Notes: a model not told the origin generated them from the sequence alone. Counted from the stretch's first letter, positions 1 to 59,265 are shown. The stretch is DNA of 64,000 nucleotides from Pseudomonadota bacterium (GCA_036344135.1 JAYYUG010000097.1:8034-72033); one strand, 5' to 3'. Translations and numbers: made by a program.

Positions 1-1096
1 TAGTTGTTGCTCTTTCAACCCATTCCATATTCGAGGTATAGAGACCGGCTTGCCATTGCAAATTGCTGTCAGTAGTAGATGTTAAGCGAATTTCTTGAGT
101 AGTAGTTTCAAATGTTTCATCTTGTCGAGCGTCAAGCCACAATTCTGGTTGAAGGTCAACATCTGTTAATCGTTTAGCTTCTGTGTCTGTATAAGAAGTA
201 ATTGAAGTTACATCATATCCATCTAATTCCCAAACAAGTTCAAGATGAGCACCAAATGTTTCCTTATCATTATTAGATTTTGTGTCGATATCATTGATAA
301 AAGGATATTCAAAATTAGGCGGAGTTCCTCTCTCCATAGCCCAGTTATTATTAGGCCCATCATATTGATTAGATCTTATAGATGCATAAAGTGACAAATT
401 ATCAGATATAGGTCCAGCGACAGAAAGTCGACCTCCACTTTCTTCATATCCAGCAACACTTTCATCATCTTTAGTTGGATTGTACATAAATCCGTCATCT
501 TCTCTTGTAAATGCAAAGAGACGTGCTGCCCAACCATCGCCAAATGGAACATTAATTGAACCCTCAACATCTCTTGAGCTTTGTTCACCTACCATTATTT
601 TTACATTACCGCTTACAGCATCTGGAGATGGTCTAGTGCTAATAAACTTAATTGCACCACCAATATTGCTTCCACCATATAAAACGCCTTGTGGACCCTT
701 TAATATCTCTATCCTATCCAGATCACCAAACCTGGAAGAGGCATCACCAAAAAGCTGGACATCATCAAGATAAAAACCTACACCCTGAGTAAGACTAAAC
801 GCACCCATACCTCTCATAGTAACATTCGGCCAGCCATCCGTTCTTGTGTTTAGATTGAAATTAGGAACTGTCATGCCAATCTTATCAAGAGTTTTCATAT
901 TATGTTGGGATATAGTTTCACCTGATATTGCAACAACGGTTTCCGGAATATCTAAAAGACTTTCTTCCCTTTTTCTTGCAGTAACAACAATTTCTTCGAT
1001 TGTTACTATAGATGATCCTTCTGTCACATCAGTTTGTGCGTGTGACTCAATATTGACTAATGACAACAGCACAAACACAATAATTAATATTTTCAT
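1..1096 (-). CDS. TonB-dependent receptor, partial: N-terminal signal peptide, plug and start of barrel; C-terminal part runs off the left window edge
   Basis: Minus-strand ATG at 1096 preceded by GGGAGGG RBS; translation MKILIIVFVLLSLVNIESHAQTDVTEGSSIVTIEEIVVTARKREESLLDIPETVVAISGE is a classic TonB-box/plug N-terminus; not in ORF track because it lacks a stop within the window. Confidence 0.75.
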   Translation of the reverse strand, partial: MKILIIVFVLLSLVNIESHAQTDVTEGSSIVTIEEIVVTARKREESLLDIPETVVAISGETISQHNMKTLDKIGMTVPNFNLNTRTDGWPNVTMRGMGAFSLTQGVGFYLDDVQLFGDASSRFGDLDRIEILKGPQGVLYGGSNIGGAIKFISTRPSPDAVSGNVKIMVGEQSSRDVEGSINVPFGDGWAARLFAFTREDDGFMYNPTKDDESVAGYEESGGRLSVAGPISDNLSLYASIRSNQYDGPNNNWAMERGTPPNFEYPFINDIDTKSNNDKETFGAHLELVWELDGYDVTSITSYTDTEAKRLTDVDLQPELWLDARQDETFETTTQEIRLTSTTDSNLQWQAGLYTSNMEWVERATT

Positions 1097-1200
1097 TAAA
1101 ATACCCTCCCAGACTATTATTTGTAATTATTATAGATCAATTATTATTTACATTCCTTAAAATTCTAATATTTATTGTGTATAATTCTTGAAAAGCAACT

Positions 1201-1566
1201 TTACATTGCAGCAAAAACCAGCTTGTTCCCGTCCAAATCTCTAAAATAGCCTCCGTAAAAACCATTTCCACGATCCCCCGGAGGTCCTTCGTCTGTGCCT
1301 CCTAATTCTATGGCTTTTGCATATAAAAAATCAACTTGATCAGGTGTCTTAGCGCTAATTGCGACCATTCCTCCATTTCCGATAGTGGCATCTTTTTTGT
1401 CATACGGTTCAGCAATTGCCAGCATTGGTTGGCCGGGGCCGGTACCCCAACCAATAAGCCTCTCGTTTTCAAAAGCTCTTTTCGCTCCAAGCTCACCTAA
1501 TAAGGCATCATAAAATTCGGCAGCACGTTCTTTATTATTTGTACCAATGGTAACATAACTTATCAT
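1201..1566 (-). CDS. VOC (glyoxalase/bleomycin-resistance/dioxygenase) family protein
   Basis: 121 aa; MISYVTIGTNNKERAAEFY...LDGNKLVF pattern typical of single-domain VOC fold proteins. Confidence 0.8.
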   Translation of the reverse strand: MISYVTIGTNNKERAAEFYDALLGELGAKRAFENERLIGWGTGPGQPMLAIAEPYDKKDATIGNGGMVAISAKTPDQVDFLYAKAIELGGTDEGPPGDRGNGFYGGYFRDLDGNKLVFAAM

Positions 1567-1645
1567 TAGAAATCTCCTGAGTTAAAACTTAAATTTCTTT
1601 TATAAATAATTATCCAAATAATTGAAATAACAGATTCTTTTTGTA

Positions 1646-2716
1646 TTAATCTATATAGAGATCAAATATTTGTTTTAATGGAATTAACTTAAAATTCTGA
1701 TTAACTTTTCTTTCTCCTGAAGTGTAAGGTTCGGTGTCGAGATAATTGACATTAGAATCGTCTTGAACAATAAAAATTCCTTCTTCAAAACGTGTACCTA
1801 AATTTTGAGAAAAAGCCTCTATGCCGTCAGTATTTGAAACAGCATCAATATCATTATTTCTTCCAATGGCAAATCTTCCTAGATATTGATTTGTATCATT
1901 TGCATTATAAACCACAAAATCGCTAGAACCTTGTGAGGAGGCAATTAATAGTTTGTCTTTTCCGCGAGTGGCAAGAGCTAAACCTTCGGAATCCCCATTA
2001 ATGTGGCCACCCTTTTTTATGCTTTGATCAATTTGTGTTACTTCTACATTCTTAGAATTAATTTCTGTTTTATAAATTCCGGTCTCATCATCTTCTTGAG
2101 AAAAATATAAAATACCATCATCATCGTCAGCAACACAACCTTCTGAAATCGAACCGGTTCGTATTTTTCTGACCATTTTTGCTTTAGCGGGAACGAGTGA
2201 AAGAAGTTCGAACTGATAAATAGATTTAGACTTCTCATCGCTTACAAAAATATATGTCTTATTATTTATTTTATTTTTGTACAGACATAAACCATAAATG
2301 CTTGAAAGACGGGTCTTTATTTCGTTTTCTTTGTATCGTATAAGTTCTCCATCCTCAGTAATCAAAAATAATTTTACTGTATTATTATCTCTTTTTGATC
2401 CTGCCATTAAAGATATATTTTTGTCATCGAAAGAGAAACCTGACCGTATATCAATATTATTAATTCTTCCTGCTGGAATGAAATCTAAACGAACGCCATT
2501 TAAAGAGAACGCATGAATCCCAGCTTTTTTATCCGTACCAAACACAACACTTTTTGAAGGTCGGTTTTTGTTAAACCAGAAAGCAGGATCATCAGCAGCA
2601 TCACCCCAAGAGTAAACTGAATCCGTTTCTTCCTCAGGAAGGATAAGCTCAAGACTATAAGCATAAGGACTTAAAACAAAAACGATTATAAATAAGATTA
2701 AAAATTTAATTTTCAA
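1646..2716 (-). CDS. Beta-propeller phytase (3-phytase), secreted
   Basis: Signal peptide; strong matches to Bacillus PhyC motifs: GDAADDPAFW (DDPAIW), TDKKAGIHAFSLNG, NNIDIRSGF, LIASSQGSSDFVVY, QNFKLIPLKQI. Confidence 0.85.
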   Translation of the reverse strand: MKIKFLILFIIVFVLSPYAYSLELILPEEETDSVYSWGDAADDPAFWFNKNRPSKSVVFGTDKKAGIHAFSLNGVRLDFIPAGRINNIDIRSGFSFDDKNISLMAGSKRDNNTVKLFLITEDGELIRYKENEIKTRLSSIYGLCLYKNKINNKTYIFVSDEKSKSIYQFELLSLVPAKAKMVRKIRTGSISEGCVADDDDGILYFSQEDDETGIYKTEINSKNVEVTQIDQSIKKGGHINGDSEGLALATRGKDKLLIASSQGSSDFVVYNANDTNQYLGRFAIGRNNDIDAVSNTDGIEAFSQNLGTRFEEGIFIVQDDSNVNYLDTEPYTSGERKVNQNFKLIPLKQIFDLYID

Positions 2717-2768
2717 TTAATATTACCTCAAAGGAGCTTAATTTATCACCTTATAAACGAAAAAAATA

Positions 2769-4208
2769 TTAGTCTTTTTCAATACCCAAAGTGTCGAGAG
2801 CCTCTTCGTGAGAAGATTTTGAAATATTGTAAAAGAAAATACATGAAATAGATGCTAGACTTAAAAGGGGTGATAAAATTGCTTGAAAATACGCCAAACG
2901 GTAAATAGGCTGTTGCATTTCCAGTACCGTAGGATTCTTTACATCAAATCCTACAATTTCTAAAAGTATACCAACAATCACCACACCTAAACCACTAATT
3001 ATTTTTTGAATAAATCCATTAGCAGATAAGTAAAGTCCCTCATCTCTTCTACCTGTCTTTAGTTGACCATCTTCGACGACATCAAAAACCATTGAAATCA
3101 CTAGTATCCAACCCGCAGTTCTTAAAAAATAACCTACACATAAAAAGAGAATAATTAACCACCATAGAGCATCTGTTCCATTTTCAGGGAATAGCTGAAT
3201 AGGAACATAAGGGTCTAACAATCTTAACCATAACGGCATTGGTTCTATGATAAGATTTAAAAGGAACAGCCCTATTGCAAAGTTTTTTTTGCTTTTTCCT
3301 TTAGCCAAAGGAGCAGCAAAAAATCCAGCCAAAACGACTGGAAGAGCGATAATAATCGGAAATAATTTAATTTCCTCTGGTGTCCATTGCCAAAAATAAA
3401 TACTAAAATATGTATCTAAGCTTGAAAATATTCCAACATTTAGAGCTAAAATAATTCCGCCAATAAAAAGGATTAACCAATTCCTATTGGAAAGAGATTC
3501 AAATATTTCTTTCCAGAATTGAGAAAATTTAAAAGGCTTTGGTTCTGGCTTAACCATATCGGGTATATGTTTGTGTGTTGAGTAAGCTGATATAAAACCA
3601 AATACTATAATTAAAAAACAAGCCAAAAGACCAAATTTTGGGTATGCATCAGGGTTTAAGAAGGCTCGTGGACCTGAAAATGTTTCGGTTTCAACAAGAA
3701 AGTAAGCTAGCATTATATAGCTCATAATTCCTAACCCCATGTTTCCGTAAAGGACTCCATAACCACTTAAAGTGTTTCTCCTTTCATAAGCAGTAATTAA
3801 TTCAGGACCAATAGCTGCTCTTGGTGTTTCATAAAAAGTAAACAATGTCCTTAAAAGGATTGCTGACACTAATAATTTTATAAAAAGAGTAGATTGGGAA
3901 TTGTCAGAAGGAGTTGAATAAAGATAATAAGCACATAAACCGAAAGGTATTATTGATAGATAAACAAAAGGATGTCTTCTACCCCATTTCGAACGAAAAC
4001 GATCTGACCAGGCACCAACCAAAGGGTCTGAAATTGCGTCAAATACTAAAGCGATAGCAAGTGCGTAGGAAGCAAGTAAAGGCTCAAGCCCTAGAATCTG
4101 ATTAAAGTAAACAAGCAGCCATGATCCAAATAAGACATTTTTAACACCGACCGCTCCTGAGCCCAGCGTATAAAGATGTAGGGTGTTATTTGTAACTTTT
4201 TTATTCAT
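2769..4208 (-). CDS. MFS transporter, glycoside-pentoside-hexuronide (GPH):cation symporter family
   Basis: 12 predicted TM segments; GPH signature D-x-(x)-R-x-x-WGRR-x-P (DRFRSKWGRRHPF) after TM2. Confidence 0.8.
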   Translation of the reverse strand: MNKKVTNNTLHLYTLGSGAVGVKNVLFGSWLLVYFNQILGLEPLLASYALAIALVFDAISDPLVGAWSDRFRSKWGRRHPFVYLSIIPFGLCAYYLYSTPSDNSQSTLFIKLLVSAILLRTLFTFYETPRAAIGPELITAYERRNTLSGYGVLYGNMGLGIMSYIMLAYFLVETETFSGPRAFLNPDAYPKFGLLACFLIIVFGFISAYSTHKHIPDMVKPEPKPFKFSQFWKEIFESLSNRNWLILFIGGIILALNVGIFSSLDTYFSIYFWQWTPEEIKLFPIIIALPVVLAGFFAAPLAKGKSKKNFAIGLFLLNLIIEPMPLWLRLLDPYVPIQLFPENGTDALWWLIILFLCVGYFLRTAGWILVISMVFDVVEDGQLKTGRRDEGLYLSANGFIQKIISGLGVVIVGILLEIVGFDVKNPTVLEMQQPIYRLAYFQAILSPLLSLASISCIFFYNISKSSHEEALDTLGIEKD

Positions 4209-4212
4209 TTAT

Positions 4213-5535
4213 TTAATTTTGTTTTTTTAATTGAGCCTGAATTTTTGAGTGCATCTCTTCAGTAATAGGGTATTTCCATATTATGGCTACAGCCAATAAG
4301 AAAAATATAGAAGGCAAGGTAGAAAATAAGAACTTAAGTCCAAATAACTGACTTGAATTGTTGTAAACATCTGGCCCAGTATTGAAACCGATCCAAGCTA
4401 ATGCAGTTAATGCAATCCATGTTCCAACAGAGCCAGTCATTTTCGAAGTGAATGACCATGAAGAGAAGAATAAACCAGATCTATTCTCTCCGCTTTTTAA
4501 TGTATCAAGGTCAATAACGTCTGCTTTCATAGAATTAGGTAACGCAGCAAAACCACCTGCCGAAAATCCTGTTACTACAGTAATTGGTAACATCCACCAG
4601 AAATCTCCTTCTCCTAAAAAAAGATAGAAAGGATGTGCTAAAGCTATCATTGTAAAACTGCCAATGTAAGCTCTGTGTTTCCCTATTTTTTTTGATAACC
4701 AAACCCAAAAAGGCACAGCTGCAAAATTAGTTAGATAGAAGAAAGTAAGCATATAAATAGCCATAGCTTCTGCTTTTAGAACATAGGTAATAAAGAACAG
4801 ATATAGTGGTGTTGTTATGGAAATAGCAATTCCTCCAACCATGAAAGCCAGAATTAATCTTTTAAAAGGAGCATTCTCTAACATTAGTTTAAAACCTTTT
4901 ATGGGCGAAATAGTTGATGGAACATGTTCTTTGGATTCTGGAACATTAGCTACGGTTAAGAAAACACAAATAGGCATAATAATTACCATAGCAATTCCAA
5001 CAATATAGAGAACATTTGCGCTTCCTCCAAAACCAAAAAATAGTAAAGCTATTGCAGGTATTAATTGAGCGCTTAAGCTACCAACTACTCCCAACATGGA
5101 TCGCCAGCCTGTTATTCGTGATCTTTCATTATAATCAGAGGATAATTCGGCGCCCCAAGCATAATAAGGGATTATTAACATTGTTGTCGCTATTGAAAGA
5201 AGCATCATCCATATAAAAAGATGGGTAGCGCCAGACCCTTCTGGTGGTAGAAAGAGCATAAAAATACTTATCATCATTAAAGGGGTCGCGAGTACTATCC
5301 ATGGTCTTCTTCTACCCCATCTCGTATTTGTTCTATCATTTATATAACCAAATATTGGATCAGTGATGACATCAAAAATACGTACAAGTAGGATGATATT
5401 AGCTGCAAGAATTAAGGGAACACCCATCTCGCCGGTATAGAATTTAGGAATAAAAACTAAAATTGGGAACAAAGCAATATTAATAGGCATTTCTGTTAAG
5501 CCGTAATAGAATAAGGTTGATCTTTTAAGTTTCAA
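4213..5535 (-). CDS. MFS transporter, GPH:cation symporter family (tandem paralog)
   Basis: Signature DRTNTRWGRRRPW; multi-TM; 4-bp gap to downstream paralog suggests co-transcription. Confidence 0.8.
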   Translation of the reverse strand: MKLKRSTLFYYGLTEMPINIALFPILVFIPKFYTGEMGVPLILAANIILLVRIFDVITDPIFGYINDRTNTRWGRRRPWIVLATPLMMISIFMLFLPPEGSGATHLFIWMMLLSIATTMLIIPYYAWGAELSSDYNERSRITGWRSMLGVVGSLSAQLIPAIALLFFGFGGSANVLYIVGIAMVIIMPICVFLTVANVPESKEHVPSTISPIKGFKLMLENAPFKRLILAFMVGGIAISITTPLYLFFITYVLKAEAMAIYMLTFFYLTNFAAVPFWVWLSKKIGKHRAYIGSFTMIALAHPFYLFLGEGDFWWMLPITVVTGFSAGGFAALPNSMKADVIDLDTLKSGENRSGLFFSSWSFTSKMTGSVGTWIALTALAWIGFNTGPDVYNNSSQLFGLKFLFSTLPSIFFLLAVAIIWKYPITEEMHSKIQAQLKKQN

Positions 5536-5619
5536 TTTTAGTACTCTCTAGAATACAGACTACATTTTATTTTCTAAATTGGTAGATCAAATACAAATAC
5601 TAATTAATGGAGTTAGAAT

Positions 5620-6654
5620 TTGAATCTAGATAATAAAGAAAAAAATAATAAATGGCTAAATCAAGTTGTGGAACCAATTCTCGAACCTGATTTACCCATA
5701 ATAGATCCCCATCATCATCTTTGGCCAGCACCATGGGGGAGAAGTAAAATACCCGTAGAATCTTATTATCTTTTAGAAGATCTTTGGAATGATACCCAAA
5801 GTGGACACAATATTGTCAAAACAGTTTTTGTTGAATGCGGCCAGGGTTATTATCTAGAAGGTCCAGAATCCTTGAGACCTGTTGGGGAAACTGATTTTGT
5901 TCTTGGTATAGCTAAAGAAGCTCGGCAAGATACTTCGAAAGCTCAAATTGCTGGAATAGTAGGTCATGCTGACCTGATGCTTGGAAAATCAGTAAAGGAA
6001 GTACTCGAAGCACATCGAGAAAAAGGTGGGGGTCTTTTTAAAGGTATTCGTCATGCAGCAGGATGGGATCAAAACGAAGAAATAAGAAACTCTCACTCTA
6101 GACCTATAAGACACATATATCTTGATGATGACTTTCAAAAAGGTATAGAACAATTAGAGAGTTTAGATATGAGTTTCGATGCTTGGCATTATCATCACCA
6201 AATCAAAGAATTAACTCTATTAGCCAAAACATTCCCAAATTTAATTATAATTCATAATCACTTTGGAGGTCCCTTAGGAATTGGTCCATACGAAGGAAAT
6301 AGAGAAAAGATATTTAGTCAGTGGAAGGAGGATATCTTTGAATTATCTGGTTGCAAAAATGTTGTTTCTAAGCTTGGAGGTATGGCGATGCCAATTAACG
6401 GGTGGGATTGGCACAAAACAACTAAACCCGCCACATCAAACGAGTTAGTGCTTGCTCAAAAAGAATATTATTTACATGTGATAGACTCATTTGGATCGGA
6501 AAGATGTCTATTTGAAAGTAATTTTCCAGTAGACAAACAATCGATATCCTATCCGGTTCTTTGGAATGCCTTTAAGAAGCTGACTTCCAATTTTAGTGAG
6601 AAAGACAAAAATCAACTCTTTTATGAAACAGCGGCTAGAGTTTATAAAATATAA
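5620..6654 (+). CDS. Amidohydrolase-2 family metal-dependent hydrolase (TIM barrel)
   Basis: N-terminal IIDPHHHLW metal-binding motif characteristic of PF04909 (LigI/ACMSD-like); only in-frame start is TTG at 5620 with GGAG 8 nt upstream. Confidence 0.75.
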   Translation: MNLDNKEKNNKWLNQVVEPILEPDLPIIDPHHHLWPAPWGRSKIPVESYYLLEDLWNDTQSGHNIVKTVFVECGQGYYLEGPESLRPVGETDFVLGIAKEARQDTSKAQIAGIVGHADLMLGKSVKEVLEAHREKGGGLFKGIRHAAGWDQNEEIRNSHSRPIRHIYLDDDFQKGIEQLESLDMSFDAWHYHHQIKELTLLAKTFPNLIIIHNHFGGPLGIGPYEGNREKIFSQWKEDIFELSGCKNVVSKLGGMAMPINGWDWHKTTKPATSNELVLAQKEYYLHVIDSFGSERCLFESNFPVDKQSISYPVLWNAFKKLTSNFSEKDKNQLFYETAARVYKI

Positions 6655-6664
6655 TAGTTTAAGA

Positions 6665-7759
6665 TTAACCTGCAGACTTTAAAGGAGCCCATGCAAGCAA
6701 TGTTTTGTCATTTGATTTTGAGTTTGGAACAAGCTTACATCCGCCCTCTTCAGCCATAGCCTTATAATCTAACCAAGATACTACCGCTTCAACTGGAGTG
6801 CCTGGTCCAGAATCAAAAACTAATGGGCCGTAAATATTAGCAGTATAGATCAAATCCTCGTCAGTAACCCTTTGCGTTGCATCGTGCCTAGCTCCAGCAG
6901 GCTCATAGAACCATATGCCTGGTCCATAACCTTCAGCAGGTCCTGCGCGAACACCTAAAGCTCCACTCAATACCAAGAAATCACTTGCACCAATATGTGT
7001 ATGCGGAAGGGCAACACCGTTATGTCGAACAATCATTGAAACAAAACCTGTTTCTTCGCTAACACGCAAAAGCTTGAGACCTACATCTGGCATTGTAGGC
7101 ATTGTAAACCATGGTACATCTCTTGTATCAACAAAATGAGGATGAGAAATTTCTGAAGACAAGACCGAGCCTGCGTCCGAATCCACTAATGTAGCTGCAT
7201 TTGATGACGCAATAGCAAGAGGTTCTCCTGGACCATTATAAGTTTGAGATCCTCTCTCCCAACATTCTGATGATGAATTAGGAACAAGCGAAATATTTTT
7301 CTTTTTAGCGAGGCTCATTAAATCAGTTCCTGTTAAAATCGATTTTAAAGAACCATCTTCTTTTAAAAAGGCTACCGCACTATAAAAATTCGCTAATACC
7401 TCTGCTTCTTCATGAGCAGTAATTGAATTCACTTTAGAATTAGCCGAAATGAAACCCCAAGTACCAGGCGCTAAGATACTTTCTTTGTCTTCTTCAGTAT
7501 AGCCAAGTTGGCCTGATAAGACGAGAAGATCCATACCACCTAAATATATTGAGCTCGGAAATGAAGATCCTTTGTCTAATTTAAAAATCATAGAAAACAT
7601 TCCACTTTCAGGACTTACCCTAATTGGCTTAACAGATAGGCCCGGTACATCTTCAATAGGTATCCAAGGTAATTTATTTGTATCAATGGATCCTTCAGCG
7701 CCATTTGGATTGTGATCAGGATTAAATTGTTCCGTGCTTTCACTCATGTTGTCCCCCAT
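6665..7759 (-). CDS. Cupin-fold protein with two cupin-like halves (possible dioxygenase)
   Basis: Two repeated halves each with His-rich metal motifs (e.g. HNGVALPHTHIGASDFLVLSG, NSKVNSITAHEEAEV); no closer assignment possible by eye. Confidence 0.5.
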   Translation of the reverse strand: MGDNMSESTEQFNPDHNPNGAEGSIDTNKLPWIPIEDVPGLSVKPIRVSPESGMFSMIFKLDKGSSFPSSIYLGGMDLLVLSGQLGYTEEDKESILAPGTWGFISANSKVNSITAHEEAEVLANFYSAVAFLKEDGSLKSILTGTDLMSLAKKKNISLVPNSSSECWERGSQTYNGPGEPLAIASSNAATLVDSDAGSVLSSEISHPHFVDTRDVPWFTMPTMPDVGLKLLRVSEETGFVSMIVRHNGVALPHTHIGASDFLVLSGALGVRAGPAEGYGPGIWFYEPAGARHDATQRVTDEDLIYTANIYGPLVFDSGPGTPVEAVVSWLDYKAMAEEGGCKLVPNSKSNDKTLLAWAPLKSAG

Positions 7760-7878
7760 AAATATAATTTTTAAATTATATTAACTATTCCCATGTGTCA
7801 AAGTTAGGTTACTGAAAATTCAGGAAATTTATTGAAATTTTATCTTTATGTTAAGATCAAAATAAATTCAGATTTCTT

Positions 7879-8316
7879 TTAAATTGAGTAATCTTGAAGC
7901 ATTTTTTTTAGTTCGATAGTATGTTGTTCTTCTTGACCTATCATCGTTCTGGCATATTCTTCTAAATAAACAGAGGCGTTTTCTACCAAATCAAGAAGGC
8001 TTTTGTAGAGATTTAAAGCGTGCACTTCGTGTTCTAAACTTTCTTCAAGAATGTCTTTAATAGAATGTTTGTTGCTTTCTTCTATTGGAGTTATTTTTTG
8101 GCTAGGATGACCATCTAATCCAGTAAGAAGCTCTCCGGCCTGTTGAGCATGTAAAAGTGATTCATTTGCCTGACCTTGAAGAAAGGCAACAATTGGAATC
8201 CTATGAGGACCTGTAACCATAAGGGAGGAATGAGTATAACGAACTACACCCGCTAACTCATATTCCATTATAGAATTCAGAATCTCACATATCTGTTTTT
8301 CATCAATTTGCTTCAT
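7879..8316 (-). CDS. Ferritin-like diiron protein (bacterioferritin family)
   Basis: 145 aa; ExxH pairs (ANESLLH, ESLEHEVH) spaced as in bacterioferritin four-helix bundle. Confidence 0.5.
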   Translation of the reverse strand: MKQIDEKQICEILNSIMEYELAGVVRYTHSSLMVTGPHRIPIVAFLQGQANESLLHAQQAGELLTGLDGHPSQKITPIEESNKHSIKDILEESLEHEVHALNLYKSLLDLVENASVYLEEYARTMIGQEEQHTIELKKMLQDYSI

Positions 8317-10196: not shown

Positions 10197-12668
10197 TTAT
10201 CTTTGGTAAGACAACTCAAGCATCATAGTTCTTCCGGGTTTCATATAGGAATATCTATCAGCTTGGAAGCCGTAAATACTTCCGGCGTTACCACCTGTAG
10301 ATGGAGTATCTGATGCATAGGTTTGGATATACTCGTCATTAAGATTTTTTCCAATAAGACTGAGCTTCCATCCTTGATCCGGAGAGCTAACACTAACGGC
10401 AGCATCAAAAACATGATATGAACCTTGTATTGCATTGGGTATGGTATCTCTCAATACATAATCATCAGAGAATTTCACATTTCCGTTAAGACCCAATTCC
10501 AGTTCACCCCCAATATCGGTAATATAATTGAAACCAAGGTTGTAACGCAAATCTGGAGACATAGCTTTATCACTTCCATTAAGACTTTGTTCCCATAAAC
10601 CTCCGACTTGTGTCGTACATCCTTCTGAAGGTTTTTGACCGCCATAACAAGGACCGCTAAATTTTACATAGTTGGCATCATTATAACCTAATGCTCCGGT
10701 CAATCTAAGACCTTCCACAGAAGGCGGTAAGTAAGTAAGTTGTATTTCAAATCCTTCAGATTCAGTTTCCTCTGCATTCAAGGTTCTGTAGGCAAAAGTA
10801 GCAGAATTAAAGAAGTTTAATTGAAGATCTTCATACTCGTATTTATAGATATCAAACTCAACATTAAGAGCTCCATCTAAGAGAATAGCTTTAACTCCCG
10901 CTTCTACACCTTTTACCGTTTCAGGATCATAAGTGATGTCAGCAATCGGATCAGCATTTAATGTGCTATCAATAGAACCGTTATCAAATCCAGCTGACTT
11001 CCAGCCTTCTTTGTAAGCAACGAAATAAGTAACGTTTTCAGACGGTTGATAACGAAGAGTTAGCTCAGGAACCAATTCATCAAGTTTTGTTTTCGAAGCT
11101 AATACTCTGCCTTCAACAAATAAGAATCCAAACATTGGATTAACATAAGGTTGAGTAAAATAAGAATCCTTTTCTTCCTCAATATAACGCGCACCGACAG
11201 TTATTTGGGTTGTGTCAGACATATCCCAAATCAATTCACCATAAACAGAAATGGTTTTTCCATCTGTTTCAGATACCTTATCGTAAGCCACAAAACGATT
11301 TGACGGATCAGCTAAAGAATTTTCAGCTCCAGCAAAAATTACCTCTTGAATGAAGTATCTTTCAGTGTTGGCATAATACGCTCCTAATGCCCAGTTGAAG
11401 TTTCCTTCGTTCTTTGAAATAACTTTTGATTCTATAGAAAAATTCTCGAAATCATTACCTTCACCAGCAAAACATCCAACACTTGCTCCACCATCACAAT
11501 CAATTACCCAACCAACATTTTGTTCGTGATGGTTCACAATTGTTTGAATAAAAACTTCATCCAAATCCACATTTAAATGCGCGGTAATAATTTTGGACTC
11601 GTAATTTTCTCCCAAATCTCCACCCAATTGACCTGTAAGTGGTAATGCAGCAGCAGGAGTCGTTGGAATAGGATTAGCGCCGCTTCGTCGGTCTTTATTA
11701 CATTCACCACCGCCCACATTCTCAATCGGCATTAAAAAACCAGGATTGTCTGGATTTGCCGTGTTTACGTGAGGTTTTCCACCTAAAGTGGTGCAATCAT
11801 ACCATTCACTAACACCCATGTTTGCATAAGTATTATCTGCAAAAGAGGCTTTTAATTTAAAAAATACATTTTCAGAAAAATTTCCCGCAAGTGTCAAACG
11901 ACCAGCGCTAAGTTCTGATTGGGGTGAATGGCTGGAAACAGGTCCTCTAGTCTCATGAACTGTTGGGGCAAATCCTTGAGATACATCAACCGTTGTATAG
12001 GTTGTTGGTCCTGCAGTATTTTCTAACCATCCTTTATCCATCTCGGAATTAAACAACGCAAGTCGTATTCCCCAATTATCACTTAGTGGAGAAGAAACCA
12101 TAAATTCTGCAGTGTTTGTCTCATATTCAAACTCATTAGCCACCTTAAATCCCCATTCAAGTTCGTCTCCAGGATCATTAGTTGTAATTACAACCGCGCC
12201 TGATGTAGCATTTTTACCGAAATAAAGCGCTTGGGGACCCTTAAGGATAGCAACTTGGCTTACATCAAATAAACCTTCATTGATAACTCTTCCTTGTGGA
12301 AAGTAAACACCATCAATCATGACAGCTGTTGATTGTTCAATACCTAAACTACCTGGACTGGATGCAATACCACGAATGGCAATCTGAACACCACTACCAC
12401 TGCTCAACCTATTGATCTCAAGAGAAGCGGAGCTATTAGCAATATCGTCCAAAGTTTGGAATCCGTACGTATCCATTTCTTCCTCGCTTATAGCTGTAAT
12501 TGCTACAGGAATATCTCTCACTGATTCATCGCGTGCTCTCGCTGTAACAACAATCTCTTCTATGTATCTTGAAAGATTACTAGATGAAGAATTATCCTGT
12601 GCCTGAGTATAAGAAAAACTAAAAATTAAAGAAAAAACAAAAAATAACGAAGGAACAAATCTCATCAC
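10197..12668 (-). CDS. TonB-dependent receptor (complete)
   Basis: 823 aa; signal peptide; TonB box/plug (EEIVVTARARDESVRDIPVAITAI); long beta-barrel with alternating amphipathic strands. Confidence 0.9.
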   Translation of the reverse strand: MMRFVPSLFFVFSLIFSFSYTQAQDNSSSSNLSRYIEEIVVTARARDESVRDIPVAITAISEEEMDTYGFQTLDDIANSSASLEINRLSSGSGVQIAIRGIASSPGSLGIEQSTAVMIDGVYFPQGRVINEGLFDVSQVAILKGPQALYFGKNATSGAVVITTNDPGDELEWGFKVANEFEYETNTAEFMVSSPLSDNWGIRLALFNSEMDKGWLENTAGPTTYTTVDVSQGFAPTVHETRGPVSSHSPQSELSAGRLTLAGNFSENVFFKLKASFADNTYANMGVSEWYDCTTLGGKPHVNTANPDNPGFLMPIENVGGGECNKDRRSGANPIPTTPAAALPLTGQLGGDLGENYESKIITAHLNVDLDEVFIQTIVNHHEQNVGWVIDCDGGASVGCFAGEGNDFENFSIESKVISKNEGNFNWALGAYYANTERYFIQEVIFAGAENSLADPSNRFVAYDKVSETDGKTISVYGELIWDMSDTTQITVGARYIEEEKDSYFTQPYVNPMFGFLFVEGRVLASKTKLDELVPELTLRYQPSENVTYFVAYKEGWKSAGFDNGSIDSTLNADPIADITYDPETVKGVEAGVKAILLDGALNVEFDIYKYEYEDLQLNFFNSATFAYRTLNAEETESEGFEIQLTYLPPSVEGLRLTGALGYNDANYVKFSGPCYGGQKPSEGCTTQVGGLWEQSLNGSDKAMSPDLRYNLGFNYITDIGGELELGLNGNVKFSDDYVLRDTIPNAIQGSYHVFDAAVSVSSPDQGWKLSLIGKNLNDEYIQTYASDTPSTGGNAGSIYGFQADRYSYMKPGRTMMLELSYQR

Positions 12669-18971: not shown

Positions 18972-20120
18972 TTAAGCATAACCAACTTGTTTGTTAATCT
19001 TAGTTGCAATTTCACGCTCTGCATCAGTTGCAAAAGTATTATCCCAATGATCAAGCTTTTTCTTAATTAAAGCATGCCATAAAGGTGGCACAAGGGCTAA
19101 AGTAAATCCAGTAAAGTAACCCCACCCAGGATTGGGTCCTCCAACATCATCCAATTCCCAGAAATGTGTTTCTCCACGAACATGGTGATCGCATTGACGA
19201 CCAATTTCTATGAAAAACCAACTCGTAAAAGCCGTATCATTATCCCAAGAATGACGGTGTTCAATGGGTTTGTCCTTTTCTCGTACTAACCCAAAATGCT
19301 CCATATAGTTAAGAGCTTCCAGCTCAAAATTAGATATAGTCCAGACAAAGAACATGCAAGCAACTCCGACTATACCGCCTGCCCACACAAACAGGATTAT
19401 AGTTGGAAGACTTATTAAATAACCTGTAATCCATTTGTTATCTAATGAGAAAAACGATTTCCCTTGTTTCTCAAGTTTTTCTTGTTCCAACTCAAAAGAA
19501 AATTTTGACTGTCCCATATGTGATAACCAAAAATGTTTGTAAAGACTTCTACCCCTAGGAGAAGTGGCAGGATCATTTTCATGGGCAAGTTCTAAATGAT
19601 GGTTATAGACATGTGCGTAACAAAAATGTGCAGCACCGCTCAACCCCATCATCAATCTTGAAATAGGCCAACCTATATCTTTAGTATGAGATAATTCATG
19701 ACCATAAATTATTCCAAGTCCTGCAAATGCACCTGCTGACAAAGAAGCTCCGTACAATTCAAGACCTGTAATGCCTGTTTGAACAGGTAACCAACCCAAC
19801 AACGTAACAGTCCCAAAATCAGCTCCACTCGTATACTGATAAACTCTCCAAGCTAATACTACTTGTAAGATAATGAATATTGGCAGCATCAAATACATTA
19901 CTAGATTTTGTAATTCTTTTATTCCATAAGACTTTCCATTTTTATCAAATCCAGCACCTTTAGTATGGAAGTTGATCACCAGAGTATCTATAGTAATGCC
20001 AACTAAAAATAAAACAGCTCCTGTCCAAACAAAAGGTCCGCCAACAATGAGACCTAATATCGTGACAGACGTCAAAACTGGTACAATAAAGTATCTAATA
20101 TTAATAAAAAATTTTTTCAT
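18972..20120 (-). CDS. alkB: AlkB-family integral-membrane alkane 1-monooxygenase (fatty-acid-desaturase-like diiron hydroxylase)
   Basis: His boxes HELSH, HVYNHH, RQCDHH and the AlkB-specific NYMEHFGL (NYIEHYGL) motif; about 6 TM helices. Confidence 0.8.
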   Translation of the reverse strand: MKKFFINIRYFIVPVLTSVTILGLIVGGPFVWTGAVLFLVGITIDTLVINFHTKGAGFDKNGKSYGIKELQNLVMYLMLPIFIILQVVLAWRVYQYTSGADFGTVTLLGWLPVQTGITGLELYGASLSAGAFAGLGIIYGHELSHTKDIGWPISRLMMGLSGAAHFCYAHVYNHHLELAHENDPATSPRGRSLYKHFWLSHMGQSKFSFELEQEKLEKQGKSFFSLDNKWITGYLISLPTIILFVWAGGIVGVACMFFVWTISNFELEALNYMEHFGLVREKDKPIEHRHSWDNDTAFTSWFFIEIGRQCDHHVRGETHFWELDDVGGPNPGWGYFTGFTLALVPPLWHALIKKKLDHWDNTFATDAEREIATKINKQVGYA

Positions 20121-54426: not shown

Positions 54427-57423
54427 TTGATGTCTATTAGGGCTCAGCTACTCTTATTTGTAGTTATAGGTTACTTATTAATTGCCGTTGTCTTTTTCTT
54501 ATCCACTCAAACTAGAGATTCGATTCAGCAAGATGCTGCTGGTGAGTCCTTGGTTGTTCTTTATGAATCCGCCTGGTATCAGACATACAACAACACCTAT
54601 GATTTAATGGGTCGTTGGTTACCTGGTTACGGCGAAAAAGGAAATATATGGGATCCCGATGACGAAACATTTATAGATGAGGTAGATGCACAGGGAAAAT
54701 ATTTAAACCCAATATTCAATACGATAGAAAACAGATCATTGGGAGATCTTCAGTATCTAATTGAGTTTATCTTCGAAGAAGAGTTAGACGAAGGTGACTT
54801 GAGTTTTGTTATGGCTTATTTTCCCACTGGCGAAAGATTTTACTGTGGAAGCGCCTTAGATTTGCTTGGTATAGATCCTTGTAGCCCAAAAGCGAGACTA
54901 GGGTTTTTCTCATATCTCGACTCCTACATAAAAGATATTTCACAAAGACCTAAACAATCTACTCTCAAGATTCTTGATTCAGAAAACAAGCAGACAACAA
55001 CTCTTAATCAAACTTATTCTTTTCCAATAAAGGTGAACAAAAAAACAATTGCTTTGATAGTTCTAGGGGTTGATGTACGAAAGGCAATTGAGGTTTTTGA
55101 AGATGAGTTTGAAGTAAGAACCGGTATAAAAACTCCTGAGGGTTTAATTTCCTTAGAGGAAGATTATTCATCCGACGATTTGAATATCGAAGCAAGATAC
55201 GGTATAGAAAATTACTCAGAGTTGGTTGCAAAGGCTAACCTTCTTATGGAATCGAAAGGAAGTAGATACAGCGACAAAGATTTTTCTCTTGGTACCTCAA
55301 TTACTCTGTTACCTTTAAGTTCATATCTTTCCTCTGACAAGGCAGAATTATTTATTTTTAAAGATGAGAAGATCTCAATGGCTAGATCTTCTGAGGTTCT
55401 TACGAGAAGCTATATTATTGTAACTTTAATGCTTTTGCTTATTGTCTCTTTAACCTCATTCGTCACTTACCGGACATTCGGAGGTATAACAAGAGCAATT
55501 AAAGTTTTAGAAGGTCTTACAAAAGGTGATCATACTCAACAAATGCCAAAAAGATCAGGTCTGATGGCTTCTGAAAATGATGAAGTAGGTCAACTATCAA
55601 CTGCTCTTCATAGCTATAGAGGTCATTTATTGGAGATGGAGGATATTAGAAAAGAACAAGCCCAAAGAAGAAAAGAAAGAGACAGAGTTATTATTGAGAA
55701 GATGTCTTTTCTAGCTGATCAACTAGAGGGAGACGCACAAAAACTTATTCTTGAGGATGTCGAAAAAATGACAGAACTGGCAAAGAAGGGTGATGATGTG
55801 GACTCCGAAGAGGCATCAGTCGAATTAATGTCTCTAGCATTCTCTCGAATGTCTGATGAAGTAAATGCTTTGATCGCAGCAAGAACAACTGAGATGGAAT
55901 CTTCCAGAGATGAAGCAAGGGACGCTAATGAAGAAAAGACAAGATTTTTCGCAAACATGAGTCATGAACTTAGGACTCCGCTTAACGCTATTTTAGGATA
56001 CGGAGAGATGCTTGCAGAAGATTGTGAAGACCTGGGTTATGATGATCTTTTGCCTGACTTAAAGAAAATTACTTCTGCAGGTAGTCACCTTCTCTCATTA
56101 ATCAACAATATTCTGGATATTTCAAAGATTGAAGCAGGAAGGATGGAGCTCTATTTAACCAGTTTTGAAATAGAATCCATGGTGGAGACAATTAAAGATG
56201 TTACCGGACCTTTAGCCTCTGCTAATGATAATGGTTTTAAAGTCAATTTACAGGACGTTTTAGGATCCATGACTCAAGATGAAACAAAGATTAGACAATG
56301 CTTGACCAACTTCTTGAGTAATGCATTTAAATTCACTTTAAGTGGAACGGTAACTCTTGATGTAGATACTTTCATGCAAGACGAATTAGAAATGATCAGG
56401 TTCGCGGTAACGGATACGGGCGAAGGAATGACAGAAGAAGGTCTCAGTAAAGTATTTAGGGAATATGAGCAAGCTGAAAGATCAACATCTGCTAAACACG
56501 GTGGTACTGGTCTAGGTCTACCTATCACAAAGAAACTCGCAGAAATGATGGGAGGAGATGTAATGGTTACCAGTGAGCTTGGAGCGGGGTCAGTTTTTAC
56601 CCTTTATGTTCCAAGAGTATGTCCACAAGAACACGATGAAGTAGAGGACGCTAATGCAATAAGCAAACTCTCTGATAAGGAGAAAGTAGTTGTCTTAATT
56701 GATGATGATGTCCCAATTCATGATATTATTAGAAGGACTCTATCAAAGATTGGTCTCACTCTTATCGGTGCAACTGATGGTGAAAAAGGCTTACAAATAG
56801 TCAGAGAAATGAAACCCAAGCTTCTTTTATTAGATGTCTTGATGCCTGGTAGGGATGGATGGTCTATCCTTAAAGAGTGCAAGTCTGATCCTGAACTAAG
56901 AGATATGCCAGTAGTTATGGTCAGCCAGCTATCACAGGACGTTCTTTCAGAATCATTAGGTGCGGATGATTATCTTACAAAACCTATCGATAGAGATTTG
57001 TTTCTAGAAACTGTCCAACGACTAATTAAAGATTCTCCGAATGGCGAAAATAAAGTTCTTGTTATTGACGATGATGCTGATGTCAGAGAATTACTTTCTA
57101 GGATGCTTAAGGATGCAGGATGGATTTCAGTAACAGCAAGAGATGGTAAAGAGGGTCTGGAAAAAGTAAAAGACACACCTTCGTTAATAGTTCTTGACCT
57201 TGAGATGCCGCGAATGGATGGATTTGAATTCTTAGATGCCTATATGAAGAACTATAACGAGTTAAACCGTGCACCTATACTGGTTTACTCTGGAAAAGAT
57301 CTTTCCGAAGTTCAAAAAGATATTTTGAATAAGAATGTCGCCGGTATGGTTAGAAAAGATGAGGTTTCAATGGATGAACTCTCAAAAATTGTGAAAAATA
57401 TTTATCAAGAATCTATCTCCTAG
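54427..57423 (+). CDS. Hybrid sensor histidine kinase (periplasmic sensor-TM-HisKA-HATPase_c-REC-REC)
   Basis: Two TM segments flanking a ~300-aa periplasmic domain; H-box FFANMSHELRTPLNAILGY; N/G boxes; two receiver domains (VLIDDD...LLDVLMPGRDG and VLVIDDD...LDLEMPRMDG). Confidence 0.9.
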   Translation: MMSIRAQLLLFVVIGYLLIAVVFFLSTQTRDSIQQDAAGESLVVLYESAWYQTYNNTYDLMGRWLPGYGEKGNIWDPDDETFIDEVDAQGKYLNPIFNTIENRSLGDLQYLIEFIFEEELDEGDLSFVMAYFPTGERFYCGSALDLLGIDPCSPKARLGFFSYLDSYIKDISQRPKQSTLKILDSENKQTTTLNQTYSFPIKVNKKTIALIVLGVDVRKAIEVFEDEFEVRTGIKTPEGLISLEEDYSSDDLNIEARYGIENYSELVAKANLLMESKGSRYSDKDFSLGTSITLLPLSSYLSSDKAELFIFKDEKISMARSSEVLTRSYIIVTLMLLLIVSLTSFVTYRTFGGITRAIKVLEGLTKGDHTQQMPKRSGLMASENDEVGQLSTALHSYRGHLLEMEDIRKEQAQRRKERDRVIIEKMSFLADQLEGDAQKLILEDVEKMTELAKKGDDVDSEEASVELMSLAFSRMSDEVNALIAARTTEMESSRDEARDANEEKTRFFANMSHELRTPLNAILGYGEMLAEDCEDLGYDDLLPDLKKITSAGSHLLSLINNILDISKIEAGRMELYLTSFEIESMVETIKDVTGPLASANDNGFKVNLQDVLGSMTQDETKIRQCLTNFLSNAFKFTLSGTVTLDVDTFMQDELEMIRFAVTDTGEGMTEEGLSKVFREYEQAERSTSAKHGGTGLGLPITKKLAEMMGGDVMVTSELGAGSVFTLYVPRVCPQEHDEVEDANAISKLSDKEKVVVLIDDDVPIHDIIRRTLSKIGLTLIGATDGEKGLQIVREMKPKLLLLDVLMPGRDGWSILKECKSDPELRDMPVVMVSQLSQDVLSESLGADDYLTKPIDRDLFLETVQRLIKDSPNGENKVLVIDDDADVRELLSRMLKDAGWISVTARDGKEGLEKVKDTPSLIVLDLEMPRMDGFEFLDAYMKNYNELNRAPILVYSGKDLSEVQKDILNKNVAGMVRKDEVSMDELSKIVKNIYQESIS

Positions 57424-57782
57424 CTTATTAAGCTTTCGATTTTTTCGAGAAGTCTTTTAAAATCTATAGGTTTTGTATCAAAATCATCTGCTCCGCACGC
57501 CAAAGCCTTTACTCTATCGGACTCTAAAGCGTGTGCTGTCAAAGCTATAATTGGTATCTCTTTAATTTCATCATCTGCCTTTGCAGTTGTTGTGGCCTCC
57601 CAACCGTCCATGACCGGTAATCCCATATCCATTAGCACTAGATCAGGTTTCTCAGATTTCATCATCTCAATTCCTTCTTTTCCGTCAAGGGCAAGGAAAA
57701 CCTCATAATTTCTTCTTTGAAGCCTTCTTGATAACATATCTCTATTCATTTCGTTGTCCTCAACATATAATATCTTTGCCAT
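57420..57782 (-). CDS. Single-domain response regulator (CheY-like REC)
   Basis: ILYVEDNEMNRDML...DLVLMDMGLPVMDG...ALTA...K. Confidence 0.9.
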   Translation of the reverse strand: MAKILYVEDNEMNRDMLSRRLQRRNYEVFLALDGKEGIEMMKSEKPDLVLMDMGLPVMDGWEATTTAKADDEIKEIPIIALTAHALESDRVKALACGADDFDTKPIDFKRLLEKIESLIS

Positions 57783-57795
57783 CTTATTTCCTTTT

Positions 57796-59265
57796 TTAAT
57801 TATTCAAAATAAACTTATCTCTTCCTGTCTTTTTCGCTTCATAAAGCCTCTTGTCTGCCTTATTAACTACATCAGAGATATTTCCAGATTCAGATGTTAA
57901 CGCTATTCCTCCACTCGCAGTGATAGTAATTGATTGACCTTCGTAATCAACTTTAACAGCATGAATACTAGATCTCAATTTATCGCAAAATTCAGAAATA
58001 TTTTTACCATCCTCATTAAAGATTACCGCTAAAAACTCTTCACCGCCGATTCTACCAACAATGTTAGGTTCAGAAATAAAGCTGTCTAAGGTATTAGCTA
58101 GAGCCTTCAAAACCTCATCACCTCCAGAATGACCATAAGTATCATTGACTGTCTTAAAGAAATCTATGTCAATCATAATAACTGTAAAATCTTTACGCTT
58201 TCCATCTTGTAGTTCTGAATATGCGTCTTCAAGAGTTTCGAAAATAACTCTTCTATTATGAATCCCTGTTAGTTGATCGGTGGTGGCTTGGATATGAAGC
58301 GTATTAACAAGCTCCTTTTCCCTTTCTCGAAAGAACTTTCTTTCCAAGGAAGATATAACTTTGGCTAATAATATAGTACCGTTAAGAGGTTTGGGAAGAT
58401 AATCTTGAGCTCCCAATTGTATGCATTTAGCAATTCCATCTACATCATTAAATGCAGAAACCATAATTATTGGGAGATTTTCGCTTCTGTTGTCCTTTCT
58501 AAATCTCTTAAGTAACTCCAATCCATTAATGTCGGGCAGTATTACATCTAGAAGAATTAGATCAGGTAGTTTTTTATTAACCTCCTCAATAGCACTATTT
58601 CCATCATAAGCTATTCTGCAATTCAAGCCCTGCAATTCAAGCCTTCTTTTAAGAACCTCACAATTAGTAACATTATCATCAACTATTAAAATATCTGCAC
58701 CCTGCAAGCTTTCATCTAAGTCGAGAGAAAAATCTATATCACCCAGAGATTTAAACAAAGATTCAGCAGTTTCTAATTGTGAAGAACCTTCATCATTTGT
58801 TTTTGAAGGCTCTCCTCGGATATAATCAACAAAAGTCTCTATGGCTTTCTCAGTCTCTCTGGAAAGATTTATTATCTTGTGGAAATCCAATAAGGCCTCC
58901 TTCGACAAATCGTCCTCTAAATCTTCTATTAGAATTTCGCTATAACCAATAATGGCATTTAGAGGGGTTCTTAGATTATGCCTTAACTCTGAATACTCCT
59001 CCGGTTTTCTTTCTTCTGTGGTAGCATTTGACCCGGTATTTTCTTCGAAAGCTTCCTCATATTGTTCAATAAGTTTAATACAACCTGATTTAATCTGATC
59101 TATCTCATCCCCAGCAGCAATATTGGCCTCGTTGATACTTTTTTCAATCATCTCTAGATAATCAGAGATTGCACCTACAGGAGTAGTGAATTCTTGTTTA
59201 ATCTGAGCTAAAATAATATCTCTAGCCCCTTTGGGAGCTTTATTTCCTGTGACCTTACTCATCAT
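57796..59265 (-). CDS. HisKA-like (x2, no ATPase) - REC - GGDEF diguanylate cyclase
   Basis: N-terminal H-box-like segments (QEFTTPVGAISDY lacking His; ELRHNLRTPLNAIIGY with His); REC ILIVDDN...LLDVILPDINGLE; GGDEF with GGEEF active site and RxxD I-site-like region. Confidence 0.85.
   Translation of the reverse strand: MMSKVTGNKAPKGARDIILAQIKQEFTTPVGAISDYLEMIEKSINEANIAAGDEIDQIKSGCIKLIEQYEEAFEENTGSNATTEERKPEEYSELRHNLRTPLNAIIGYSEILIEDLEDDLSKEALLDFHKIINLSRETEKAIETFVDYIRGEPSKTNDEGSSQLETAESLFKSLGDIDFSLDLDESLQGADILIVDDNVTNCEVLKRRLELQGLNCRIAYDGNSAIEEVNKKLPDLILLDVILPDINGLELLKRFRKDNRSENLPIIMVSAFNDVDGIAKCIQLGAQDYLPKPLNGTILLAKVISSLERKFFREREKELVNTLHIQATTDQLTGIHNRRVIFETLEDAYSELQDGKRKDFTVIMIDIDFFKTVNDTYGHSGGDEVLKALANTLDSFISEPNIVGRIGGEEFLAVIFNEDGKNISEFCDKLRSSIHAVKVDYEGQSITITASGGIALTSESGNISDVVNKADKRLYEAKKTGRDKFILNN

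Follow-up and report, generated by a model that had tools for sequence, protein, structure and literature searches.

A strain-variable beta-propeller phytase cassette beside unrelated MFS_2 transporters in a marine bacterium rich in TonB-dependent receptors

The window considered here is a 64,000-nucleotide stretch of DNA from a low-GC marine bacterium of the Pseudomonadota that probably belongs to the PS1 clade; the label 'Rhodobiaceae' is attached to some members of the cluster. Five co-oriented genes lie at its start on the minus strand, exactly where a sequence-only reading had placed them, with intergenic gaps of 4, 52, 79 and 104 nt in the order MFSa, MFSb, phytase, VOC and TonB-dependent receptor (TBDR). 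Together with their neighbours, they are:

1-1096, minus strand: TBDR, N-terminal 365 aa (PF07715 Plug, E 1.6e-15)
1133-2768: strain-variable two-gene cassette of 1,636 bp, made up of phytase, VOC and flanking spacers
1201-1566, minus strand: small VOC/glyoxalase-fold protein, 121 aa (PF00903 Glyoxalase, E 1.6e-10)
1646-2716, minus strand: single-domain beta-propeller phytase, 356 aa, TTG start (PF02333, E 1.4e-60)
2769-4208, minus strand: MFS_2 transporter 'b' (MFSb), 479 aa (PF13347, E 1.3e-75)
4213-5535, minus strand: MFS_2 transporter 'a' (MFSa), 440 aa, TTG start (PF13347, E 2.5e-99)
5620-6654, plus strand: Amidohydro_2 protein of lactonase/decarboxylase type, divergent from MFSa (PF04909, E 6.5e-25)
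6665-7759, minus strand: double Cupin_7 protein, from a backbone gene whose sister-clade orthologue is syntenic with the phytase
7879-8316, minus strand: ferritin-like protein, likewise from a backbone gene whose sister-clade orthologue is syntenic with the phytase
10197-12668, minus strand: TonB-dependent receptor of 823 aa (TBDR823), whose sister-clade orthologue is the gene conserved upstream of the phytase

The first of these receptors runs off the start of the window, which holds only its plug and first barrel strands; its full length of 716 aa is seen in contig L103. There and in L104 it is followed by genes for a DLH esterase, an amidase, an ECH protein and an Amidohydro_2 protein, and the same-strand run in L103 goes on for at least five genes past the TBDR, HXXEE included. 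Co-orientation is therefore little informative at this locus, and the 716-aa TBDR probably heads a catabolic gene run of its own. The four gaps contain no predicted intrinsic terminator, and promoter-like matches there in a consensus scan stayed at shuffle level. As the first two gaps are short (4 and 52 bp) and the one between MFSb and the phytase lacks a predicted terminator, the genes may share a transcript and be co-regulated in this lineage. The sequence-only reading had suggested looking for a Pho box upstream of 5535. None was found, allowing up to three mismatches, in the gaps at 5536-5619, 2717-2768, 1567-1645 and 1097-1200 using a consensus that may not be that of the host; at the same tolerance CTGTCAT-N4-CTGTCAT matched seven times in the 64 kb, against 5.3 expected. 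Neither inositol-catabolism (iol) nor pho genes were found in the 64 kb.

The phytase scores 205.7 bits against PF02333 (cutoff 21), its residues 25-352 covering profile positions 33-355 of 375, and matches the Bacillus structures 3AMR, 1POO and 1H6L over residues 28-352 with 36% identity (E 5e-48 to 2e-46). It can be aligned end to end with these Bacillus phytases (PhyC/TS-Phy; PDB 3AMR, 1POO/2POO, 1H6L), which have the same six-bladed propeller of about 350 aa, and it shares with them every active-site Ca and phosphate ligand checked: all 13 (D52, D55, D56, K76, K77, R122, Y159, E211, E227, D258, E260, D308 and D314) are kept, and the active-site positions are invariant across a 15-sequence alignment. 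The YG, EGxxxD, DxEG and DG motifs, four in all, are common to both (motif list from PMC12406696, Table 1). Catalytic residues, whose absence the sequence-only reading had named as evidence against itself, are thus in place, and the gene credibly encodes a beta-propeller phytase that appears catalytically intact and whose substrate would be phytate. Marine enzymes of this family derived from metagenomes, including some of the Bacillus-type ABL clade, have been shown to be active phytases (PMC12406696). The N-terminus, MKIKFLILFIIVFVLSPYAYS followed by LE, resembles a Sec signal peptide when read by eye, and a periplasmic location is probable, as the host, unlike Bacillus, is Gram-negative and marine. 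It differs from the Bacillus enzyme at three positions: K179, which we take to be a substrate phosphate contact, is Glu, while E338 and D341, presumably part of the high-affinity Ca sites, are Ser and Asn.

Phytase and VOC form a cassette that some strains carry and others lack. The five-gene arrangement recurs only within the window's own lineage (L001, L091, L103 and L104), and L110, whose backbone is 94-95% identical to the window at the nucleotide level on both sides of the cassette, aligns to positions 1-1132 (95.4%) and 2769-8155 (77-94%) and carries about 150 bp in place of the 1,636-bp phytase-VOC segment. Its gene order passes from MFSa and MFSb directly to the 716-aa TBDR; the VOC gene is absent together with the phytase, and tblastn detected no remnant of either in L110. 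The VOC protein has no NCBIfam match.

Both transporters belong to the broad Pfam family MFS_2 but miss the TIGR00792 (GPH) cutoff of 231.35, MFSa narrowly at 226.7 bits and MFSb at 138.9, and the MelB, GusB and YagG equivalog models score 60-149 bits on them against cutoffs of 456-610. MFSD2A, a Na+/lysophosphatidylcholine symporter, and MelB, a Na+/melibiose symporter, are members of the same family with the same size of about 12 TM; similarity to either is nevertheless distant and far under every NCBIfam equivalog cutoff. MFSD2A scores above MelB for MFSa (113 versus 76 bits) and for MFSb (42 versus 36 bits), and is the best solved relative of MFSb, with MelB next. The helix-2 cation site of MFSa reads DVITDP (DxxTDP; D55/T58/D59), matching the MelB aspartates D55 and D59, and the corresponding MFSD2A motif is DAITDP, with D-x-x-T/N-D-P conserved; the equivalent in MFSb is DAISDP. 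At 22% identity to each other, MFSa and MFSb are old paralogues and no product of a recent tandem duplication.

Elsewhere these transporters keep other company. No phytase accompanies the pair in L105 (MFSa 81% and MFSb 77% identity), in L110 (96% and 84%) and in L111 (83% and 87%), where a GSDH gene follows. MFSb orthologues without a phytase are also found in L106-109, more distant homologues of MFSa or MFSb in L006, L007, L009 and L106-109 have unrelated neighbours, and so do the widespread MFSa homologues of 65-75% identity; no glycoside hydrolase or lipid gene consistently adjoins these transporters. In the window the pair sits in an oxygenase-rich catabolic region. The adjacent Amidohydro_2 protein weakly matches L-fucono-1,5-lactonase, and its gene and MFSa diverge from L103 as one patch (77-83% nucleotide identity, against 96-98% for the backbone).

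The neighbourhoods of phytases in other genomes were surveyed in 80 loci from other species (GTDB species representatives) with flanks of about 10 kb. In half of them (40/80) the phytase has a Pfam-confirmed TBDR no more than 600 bp away, and 28 of these 40 receptors are upstream on the same strand. Phytate was named as an inferred TBDT substrate by Tang et al. (2012; PMC3400609), and phytases near TBDRs are known from Shewanella, Pseudomonas, Colwellia, Caulobacter and Citromicrobium (the 'phytate' TBDT cluster of PMC3400609), an arrangement also seen in the sister clade. The general pairing claimed by the sequence-only reading therefore stands; the particular receptor to which it was applied, at 1-1096, is not the conserved partner of the phytase. 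In all 11 sister-clade loci whose sequence extends upstream of the phytase, the gene that immediately precedes it (in some cases a SnoaL gene intervenes) is an orthologue of TBDR823 (65-80% identity) and not the 716-aa TBDR; in the window TBDR823 lies 7.5 kb away. The classical pairs of Gammaproteobacteria and Alphaproteobacteria mostly involve dual-domain phytases of about 640-700 aa, judged from ORF sizes, whereas the window enzyme is single-domain and its adjacent receptor is downstream, on the far side of the VOC gene, and occurs without the phytase as well. Two TBDRs fall within the first 12.7 kb of this TBDR-rich region, so that a receptor two genes from the phytase is not improbable by chance.

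Judged by sequence, both window receptors are unrelated beyond family level to the classical phytase-linked ones. Against the phytase-adjacent (600 bp or less) TBDRs of the survey, the 823-aa and 716-aa receptors gave BLASTP E values above 0.01 with two exceptions, namely the L012 orthologue and the match of the 716-aa TBDR to the second TBDR of L053, which lies 287 bp from the phytase (E 1e-6); the receptors behind the remaining weak matches (E 2e-32 to 1e-3) lie farther from the phytase. Because neither receptor resembles the classical ones, it is synteny alone that suggests TBDR-mediated uptake of phytate, and the sister-clade synteny could itself reflect simple shared ancestry.

The locus is probably best explained as the meeting, within one species-level lineage, of two or three modules that are independent of one another. 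The first would be the phytase-VOC cassette, with a Sec-exported, Ca2+-dependent phytase whose ancestral TBDR partner in the clade would be the orthologue of TBDR823. Phytate, or its Ca or Mg salt, would cross the outer membrane through a TBDR, periplasmic or secreted phytase would strip alternate phosphates from it, and the freed phosphate would enter through ordinary phosphate transporters, so that an inner-membrane importer of inositol or inositol phosphates would not be required. The second module would be MFSa-MFSb, possibly with the divergent Amidohydro_2 gene, the two proteins acting as cation-coupled symporters of an organic, possibly amphipathic, substrate. The third would be the 716-aa TBDR at the head of its esterase, amidase, ECH and amidohydrolase run.

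It is unlikely, though conceivable, that the phytase-like enzyme acts in vivo on some other phosphorylated compound delivered by TBDR823, the cassette then belonging to the oxygenase-rich catabolic region and not to phosphorus scavenging. The dissimilarity of the window receptors to classical phytase-linked ones, the empty Pho box search of the cluster gaps, the three substitutions, the VOC protein that travels with the phytase and the rate of evolution of the phytase, the highest in the syntenic block (51-53% amino acid identity, against 65-89% for its neighbours), would all fit such a role. They are set against a fully conserved core catalytic site and a family for which we know of no established substrate other than inositol phosphates. 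Moreover, the marine metagenome-derived enzymes that have been assayed were active on phytate (PMC12406696).

A single five-gene phytate operon, as the sequence-only reading had proposed, is very unlikely. In that scheme phytate would enter by way of the TBDR and lose phosphates to the phytase, after which the two GPH-type symporters would bring in inositol or its lower phosphates. The co-orientation, the short gaps without predicted terminators and the stability of the arrangement across four contigs from the window's lineage speak for it, as does a likeness to the 'CUT' loci of Xanthomonas (e.g., SuxA/SuxB/SuxC), in which a TBDR, a degradative enzyme and an inner-membrane MFS carrier are conserved together. 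The window has superficially the same one-strand parts list, but its parts are demonstrably separable: L110 has the same MFS pair and the same TBDR but no cassette between them, L105 and L111 carry the pair without a phytase, and no MFS_2 gene was found near the phytase in any of 91 other loci (0/11 in the sister clade and 0/80 in the survey, within about 10 kb). Functional coupling of the phytase to the MFS_2 transporters is not supported. Import of inositol or its lower phosphates by these proteins likewise finds no backing in their closer match to a lysolipid carrier (MFSD2A) than to MelB, their unrelated neighbours elsewhere and the lack of iol genes and Pho box noted above; the first two of these are observations that the sequence-only reading had itself named as refuting. 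The bacterial inositol carriers known to us are of Sugar_tr type, as is the only sugar-type carrier found next to a phytase in the survey (L042), and beta-propeller phytases stop at InsP3, an unlikely substrate for a GPH transporter. Metal-phytate acquisition, in which the TBDR-phytase pair would serve uptake of iron or another metal in connection with the ferritin-like gene, is highly improbable: Cupin_7 and ferritin-like orthologues (82-89% identity) do follow the phytase, about 2 kb downstream, in L011/L012, L092, L093, L095, L096 and L099, syntenic with it and TBDR823 across the sister clade, and siderophore-receptor models are the top NCBIfam matches of the 716-aa TBDR N-terminus (all far under cutoff), but the synteny is seen in a single clade and could result from inheritance alone, the receptor matches are generic plug-domain matches, and in the window the phytase has shifted off the ferritin side while the other genes have not gone with it.

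With independent modules as the preferred explanation, transcription from the MFS genes may now continue into the phytase, which would be a side effect of the site at which the cassette arrived. A point against this explanation is that the lineage-specific joining of genes into operons can be adaptive. The phytase itself is of a known kind, probably an ordinary phosphorus-scavenging enzyme that stands beside unrelated transporters in a TBDR-rich marine bacterium.

The five genes that the sequence-only reading had grouped as a phytate-utilization operon were all recovered on the minus strand of the first 5.5 kb, with gaps of exactly 4, 52, 79, and 104 nt, and their assigned families agree with Pfam and NCBIfam at family level. 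The principal features of the first 12.7 kb are:

4213-5535, minus strand: MFS_2 transporter 'a' (MFSa; Pfam and NCBIfam)
2769-4208, minus strand: MFS_2 transporter 'b' (MFSb; Pfam and NCBIfam)
1646-2716, minus strand: beta-propeller phytase (Pfam and NCBIfam)
1201-1566, minus strand: VOC protein (family-level label)
1-1096, minus strand: N-terminus of a TonB-dependent receptor (TBDR; 716 aa), start at 1096, the rest cut by the window edge
5620-6654, divergent from MFSa: Amidohydro_2 gene
10197-12668: second TBDR, complete, 823 aa

Past the Amidohydro_2 gene lie a double Cupin_7 gene, a ferritin-like gene, a P450 gene, and a SnoaL gene, followed by the 823-aa TBDR. Neighbors in unannotated comparison loci (L numbers) were called from six-frame ORFs and profiles built for this analysis, and lineage names rest on the database labels ('Rhodobiaceae bacterium', 'PS1 clade', 'Pseudomonadota') attached to the nearest SAG and to members of the clusters.

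End-to-end alignment was obtained between the phytase and structures of Bacillus beta-propeller phytases (3AMR, 1POO, and 1H6L; E 5e-48 to 2e-46, 36% identity). In Bacillus numbering, D52, D55, D56, K76, K77, R122, Y159, E211, E227, D258, E260, D308, and D314 are conserved; K179, E338, and D341 differ. All four diagnostic motifs of Teng et al. (2025; PMC12406696) are present, and motif and active-site positions are invariant in an alignment of the window phytase with 14 homologs. The N-terminus, read from sequence, resembles a Sec signal peptide, and marine metagenome-derived beta-propeller phytases are active alkaline enzymes (PMC12406696). Taken together, these observations remove the concern that the catalytic calcium-binding residues might be lacking: they are intact and the phytase is real. 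That the enzyme acts on a substrate other than phytate appears improbable. Literature searches on SAR86 and phytase, and on phytase residue numbering, returned little.

In L110, a strain whose backbone is 94-95% identical to the window on both sides of the site, the order is Cupin_7, Amidohydro_2, MFSa, MFSb, and 716-aa TBDR, with ~150 bp replacing the 1,636-bp phytase-VOC segment (1133-2768) and no remnant of phytase or VOC detected there. The window arrangement was seen elsewhere only in four contigs, all of its own lineage (L001, L091, L103, and L104). The phytase and VOC genes therefore make up a cassette that varies between strains and was inserted where the transporter pair and the TBDR were already in place. 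Alignment of the cassette junctions for boundaries yielded only AT-rich noise. No ortholog of the window VOC gene was detectable beside phytases of the sister clade, whose phytase is about 52% identical to that of the window and which comprises a single-cell genome of the PS1 clade and numerous contigs of marine origin; in L002 a different glyoxalase-fold gene adjoins the phytase. Across the sister clade, phytase is the fastest-diverging gene of the syntenic block (51-53% amino acid identity versus 65-89% for its neighbors). The nucleotide backbone is 94-99% identical between the window and L103, L001, and L110, with divergent patches at 1900-2700 and 4200-6200. Within the phytase gene, one patch shows only 75-84% identity to its counterparts in L103 and L001; the patch spanning Amidohydro_2 and MFSa is 77-83% identical to L103, and MFSb is 77% identical to L110. 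The divergence is thus mosaic within one population, and the patches look like independent recombination imports.

A survey of beta-propeller phytases, scanning one genome per species, gave 80 loci. L002 and L012, apparently one single-cell assembly, are counted once. TBDRs were sought with an iteratively built profile (Pfam found both Plug and barrel in 38 of 40) and occurred within 600 bp of the phytase in half of the species loci (40/80), upstream and on the same strand in 28. This agrees with the phytase-TBDR association inferred in the literature (PMC3400609), and the theme is already established. The proposed pairing therefore stands as a general pattern but not in its particular form, as the adjacent 716-aa TBDR is not the conserved partner. 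In all 11 sister-clade loci with upstream sequence, an ortholog of the 823-aa TBDR directly precedes the phytase, sometimes with a SnoaL gene between, so the conserved partner lies outside the five-gene cluster. In L103 and L104, esterase, amidase, ECH, and amidohydrolase genes come after the 716-aa TBDR in the same orientation, and the receptor probably belongs with them. Neither window TBDR was found to resemble the classical phytase-linked receptors. Sister-clade loci also carry ferritin and Cupin_7 genes ~2 kb downstream of the phytase; metal-phytate acquisition tied to the ferritin gene, which this neighborhood might evoke, is given very little credence.

The two transporters are only 22% identical to each other, and for both the MFSD2A lysolipid symporters are a better match than MelB (113 versus 76 bits for MFSa, 42 versus 36 bits for MFSb). 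MFSa falls slightly below and MFSb well below the TIGR00792 GPH cutoff, and every equivalog cutoff is far above their scores. Conservation of the helix-2 cation-site aspartates makes cation-coupled symport plausible. Homologs of MFSa (65-75% identical) are widespread in marine Gammaproteobacteria among unrelated neighbors, and those of MFSb (46-48%) adjoin rhomboid/DUF3604 genes or a flavin monooxygenase. Closer relatives keep the tandem with different genes downstream: an unrelated, convergent TBDR in L105 and a GSDH gene in L111. No MFS_2 gene was found in the flanks of any species locus (0/80) or any sister-clade locus (0/11). No inositol-catabolism or Pho-regulon genes were found in the 64-kb window. 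The suggestion that the pair are GPH carriers for inositol compounds thus finds no support; likeness to lipid carriers with unrelated neighbors elsewhere, which the sequence-only reading had itself named as contrary evidence, is what was observed. With the transporters unlinked to phytase, the five co-oriented genes are very unlikely to form a functional unit.

Several other arrangements were encountered. The iterative MFS profile strayed, near acidobacterial phytases, onto MFS_1 carriers and fusions of FHA, kinase, and MFS domains; Pfam assigns the resulting matches to MFS_1, Sugar_tr, or kinase fusions rather than MFS_2/GPH, so they set no precedent for MFS_2-phytase linkage. Nine loci (L013, L014, L020, L022, L028, L035, L037, L045, and L075), from Acidobacteriota/Blastocatellia plus one MAG labeled Heliomicrobium, share a conserved neighborhood in which an MFS_1 carrier and a ~1,000-aa FHA, Ser/Thr kinase, and MFS fusion protein repeatedly lie 0-2 kb from a single-domain phytase. 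Pseudoxanthomonas kalamensis (L042:7030-8532) encodes a Sugar_tr-family carrier (363 bits; not MFS_2) 242 bp from the phytase; no other locus of the 80 has an inner-membrane carrier of the sugar-porter type next to its phytase. The Sugar_tr family includes known inositol carriers. L009 (Amidohydro_2, TBDR, MFS_2, P450, SnoaL, and an MFSa homolog) was rejected as the window's module, its second MFS_2 and Amidohydro_2 being only family-level relatives. In L106-L108 (5894-6331 and 8001-13967), marine contigs of 33% GC, a 47%-identical MFSb homolog precedes rhomboid and DUF3604 genes and another MFS_2 gene; 2 kb upstream of it is a ferritin-like gene that shares 77% identity with the one in the window, a notable likeness in contigs labeled Gammaproteobacteria. 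Between MFSa and MFSb the window has a spacer of 4 nt (4209-4212), compared with 78 nt in L103/L104 (L103 9012-9089) and 50 nt in L105 (11342-11391); the pair is not invariably coupled so tightly.

The cluster's intergenic gaps contain no Pho box, which the sequence-only reading had proposed looking for, at up to three mismatches to an E. coli/alphaproteobacterial consensus that may not be the host's. No terminators were predicted in the gaps, and promoter-like matches were at shuffle background; read-through from the MFS genes into phytase is possible. Elsewhere the window is a catabolic region rich in oxygenases, with four Rieske alpha subunits, P450, OYE, FMO, desaturases, acyl-CoA dehydrogenase, Cu amine oxidase, and SDRs. 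Within 12798-63295, the Rieske ring-hydroxylating subunits (12798, 16342, 39763, and 60936) have no obvious beta subunits and are accompanied by an OYE-type reductase, an FMO/BVMO, two FA_desaturase genes, a LolA-like and MacB-type ABC system, and a hybrid histidine kinase/GGDEF/EAL group (54427-60349). A SAM-I/IV riboswitch (RF01725; 20251-20347, minus strand) scores 51 bits, which exceeds the gathering score, and precedes by ~130 nt an ORF of the fatty-acid-desaturase family (18972-20120, minus strand), a kind of gene that SAM riboswitches do not usually precede.

The probable explanation is an ordinary Ca2+-dependent phytase serving phosphate scavenging from a flexible two-gene cassette, with the MFS_2 pair and the 716-aa TBDR as independent neighbors. 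Phytate would probably reach the enzyme through a TBDR, for which synteny points to the clade's 823-aa receptor as the best candidate, and the phosphate released would be taken up by standard systems. It is highly doubtful that the cassette was instead captured, in this lineage only, into the transcript of two MFSD2A-like symporters as a new route for inositol compounds with recruited TBDRs. Were that so, an MFS_2 carrier would import, for example, lyso-phosphoinositides or partly dephosphorylated inositol phosphates, and the TBDRs specific to the clade would have been recruited anew to admit phytate through the outer membrane. Inositol-containing compounds are, to our knowledge, not a known substrate class of the MFS_2 family.

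The locus does not reveal a new transport mechanism, and it illustrates that in TBDR-rich genomes co-orientation and short gaps are poor evidence of operon-level function. It is of mild interest for its presence/absence polymorphism, its recombination patches, and its use of TBDRs that have no relationship to the classical phytase-linked receptors. Beta-propeller phytases from marine environments are now regarded as one of the major ways in which organic phosphorus is recycled (PMC12406696), and this locus contributes a further example, from a lineage that is abundant, uncultured, and oligotrophic. There, the phytase gene behaves as flexible, strain-variable content, with the insertion/deletion polymorphism and recombination patches expected of a niche-adaptive phosphorus-scavenging trait.
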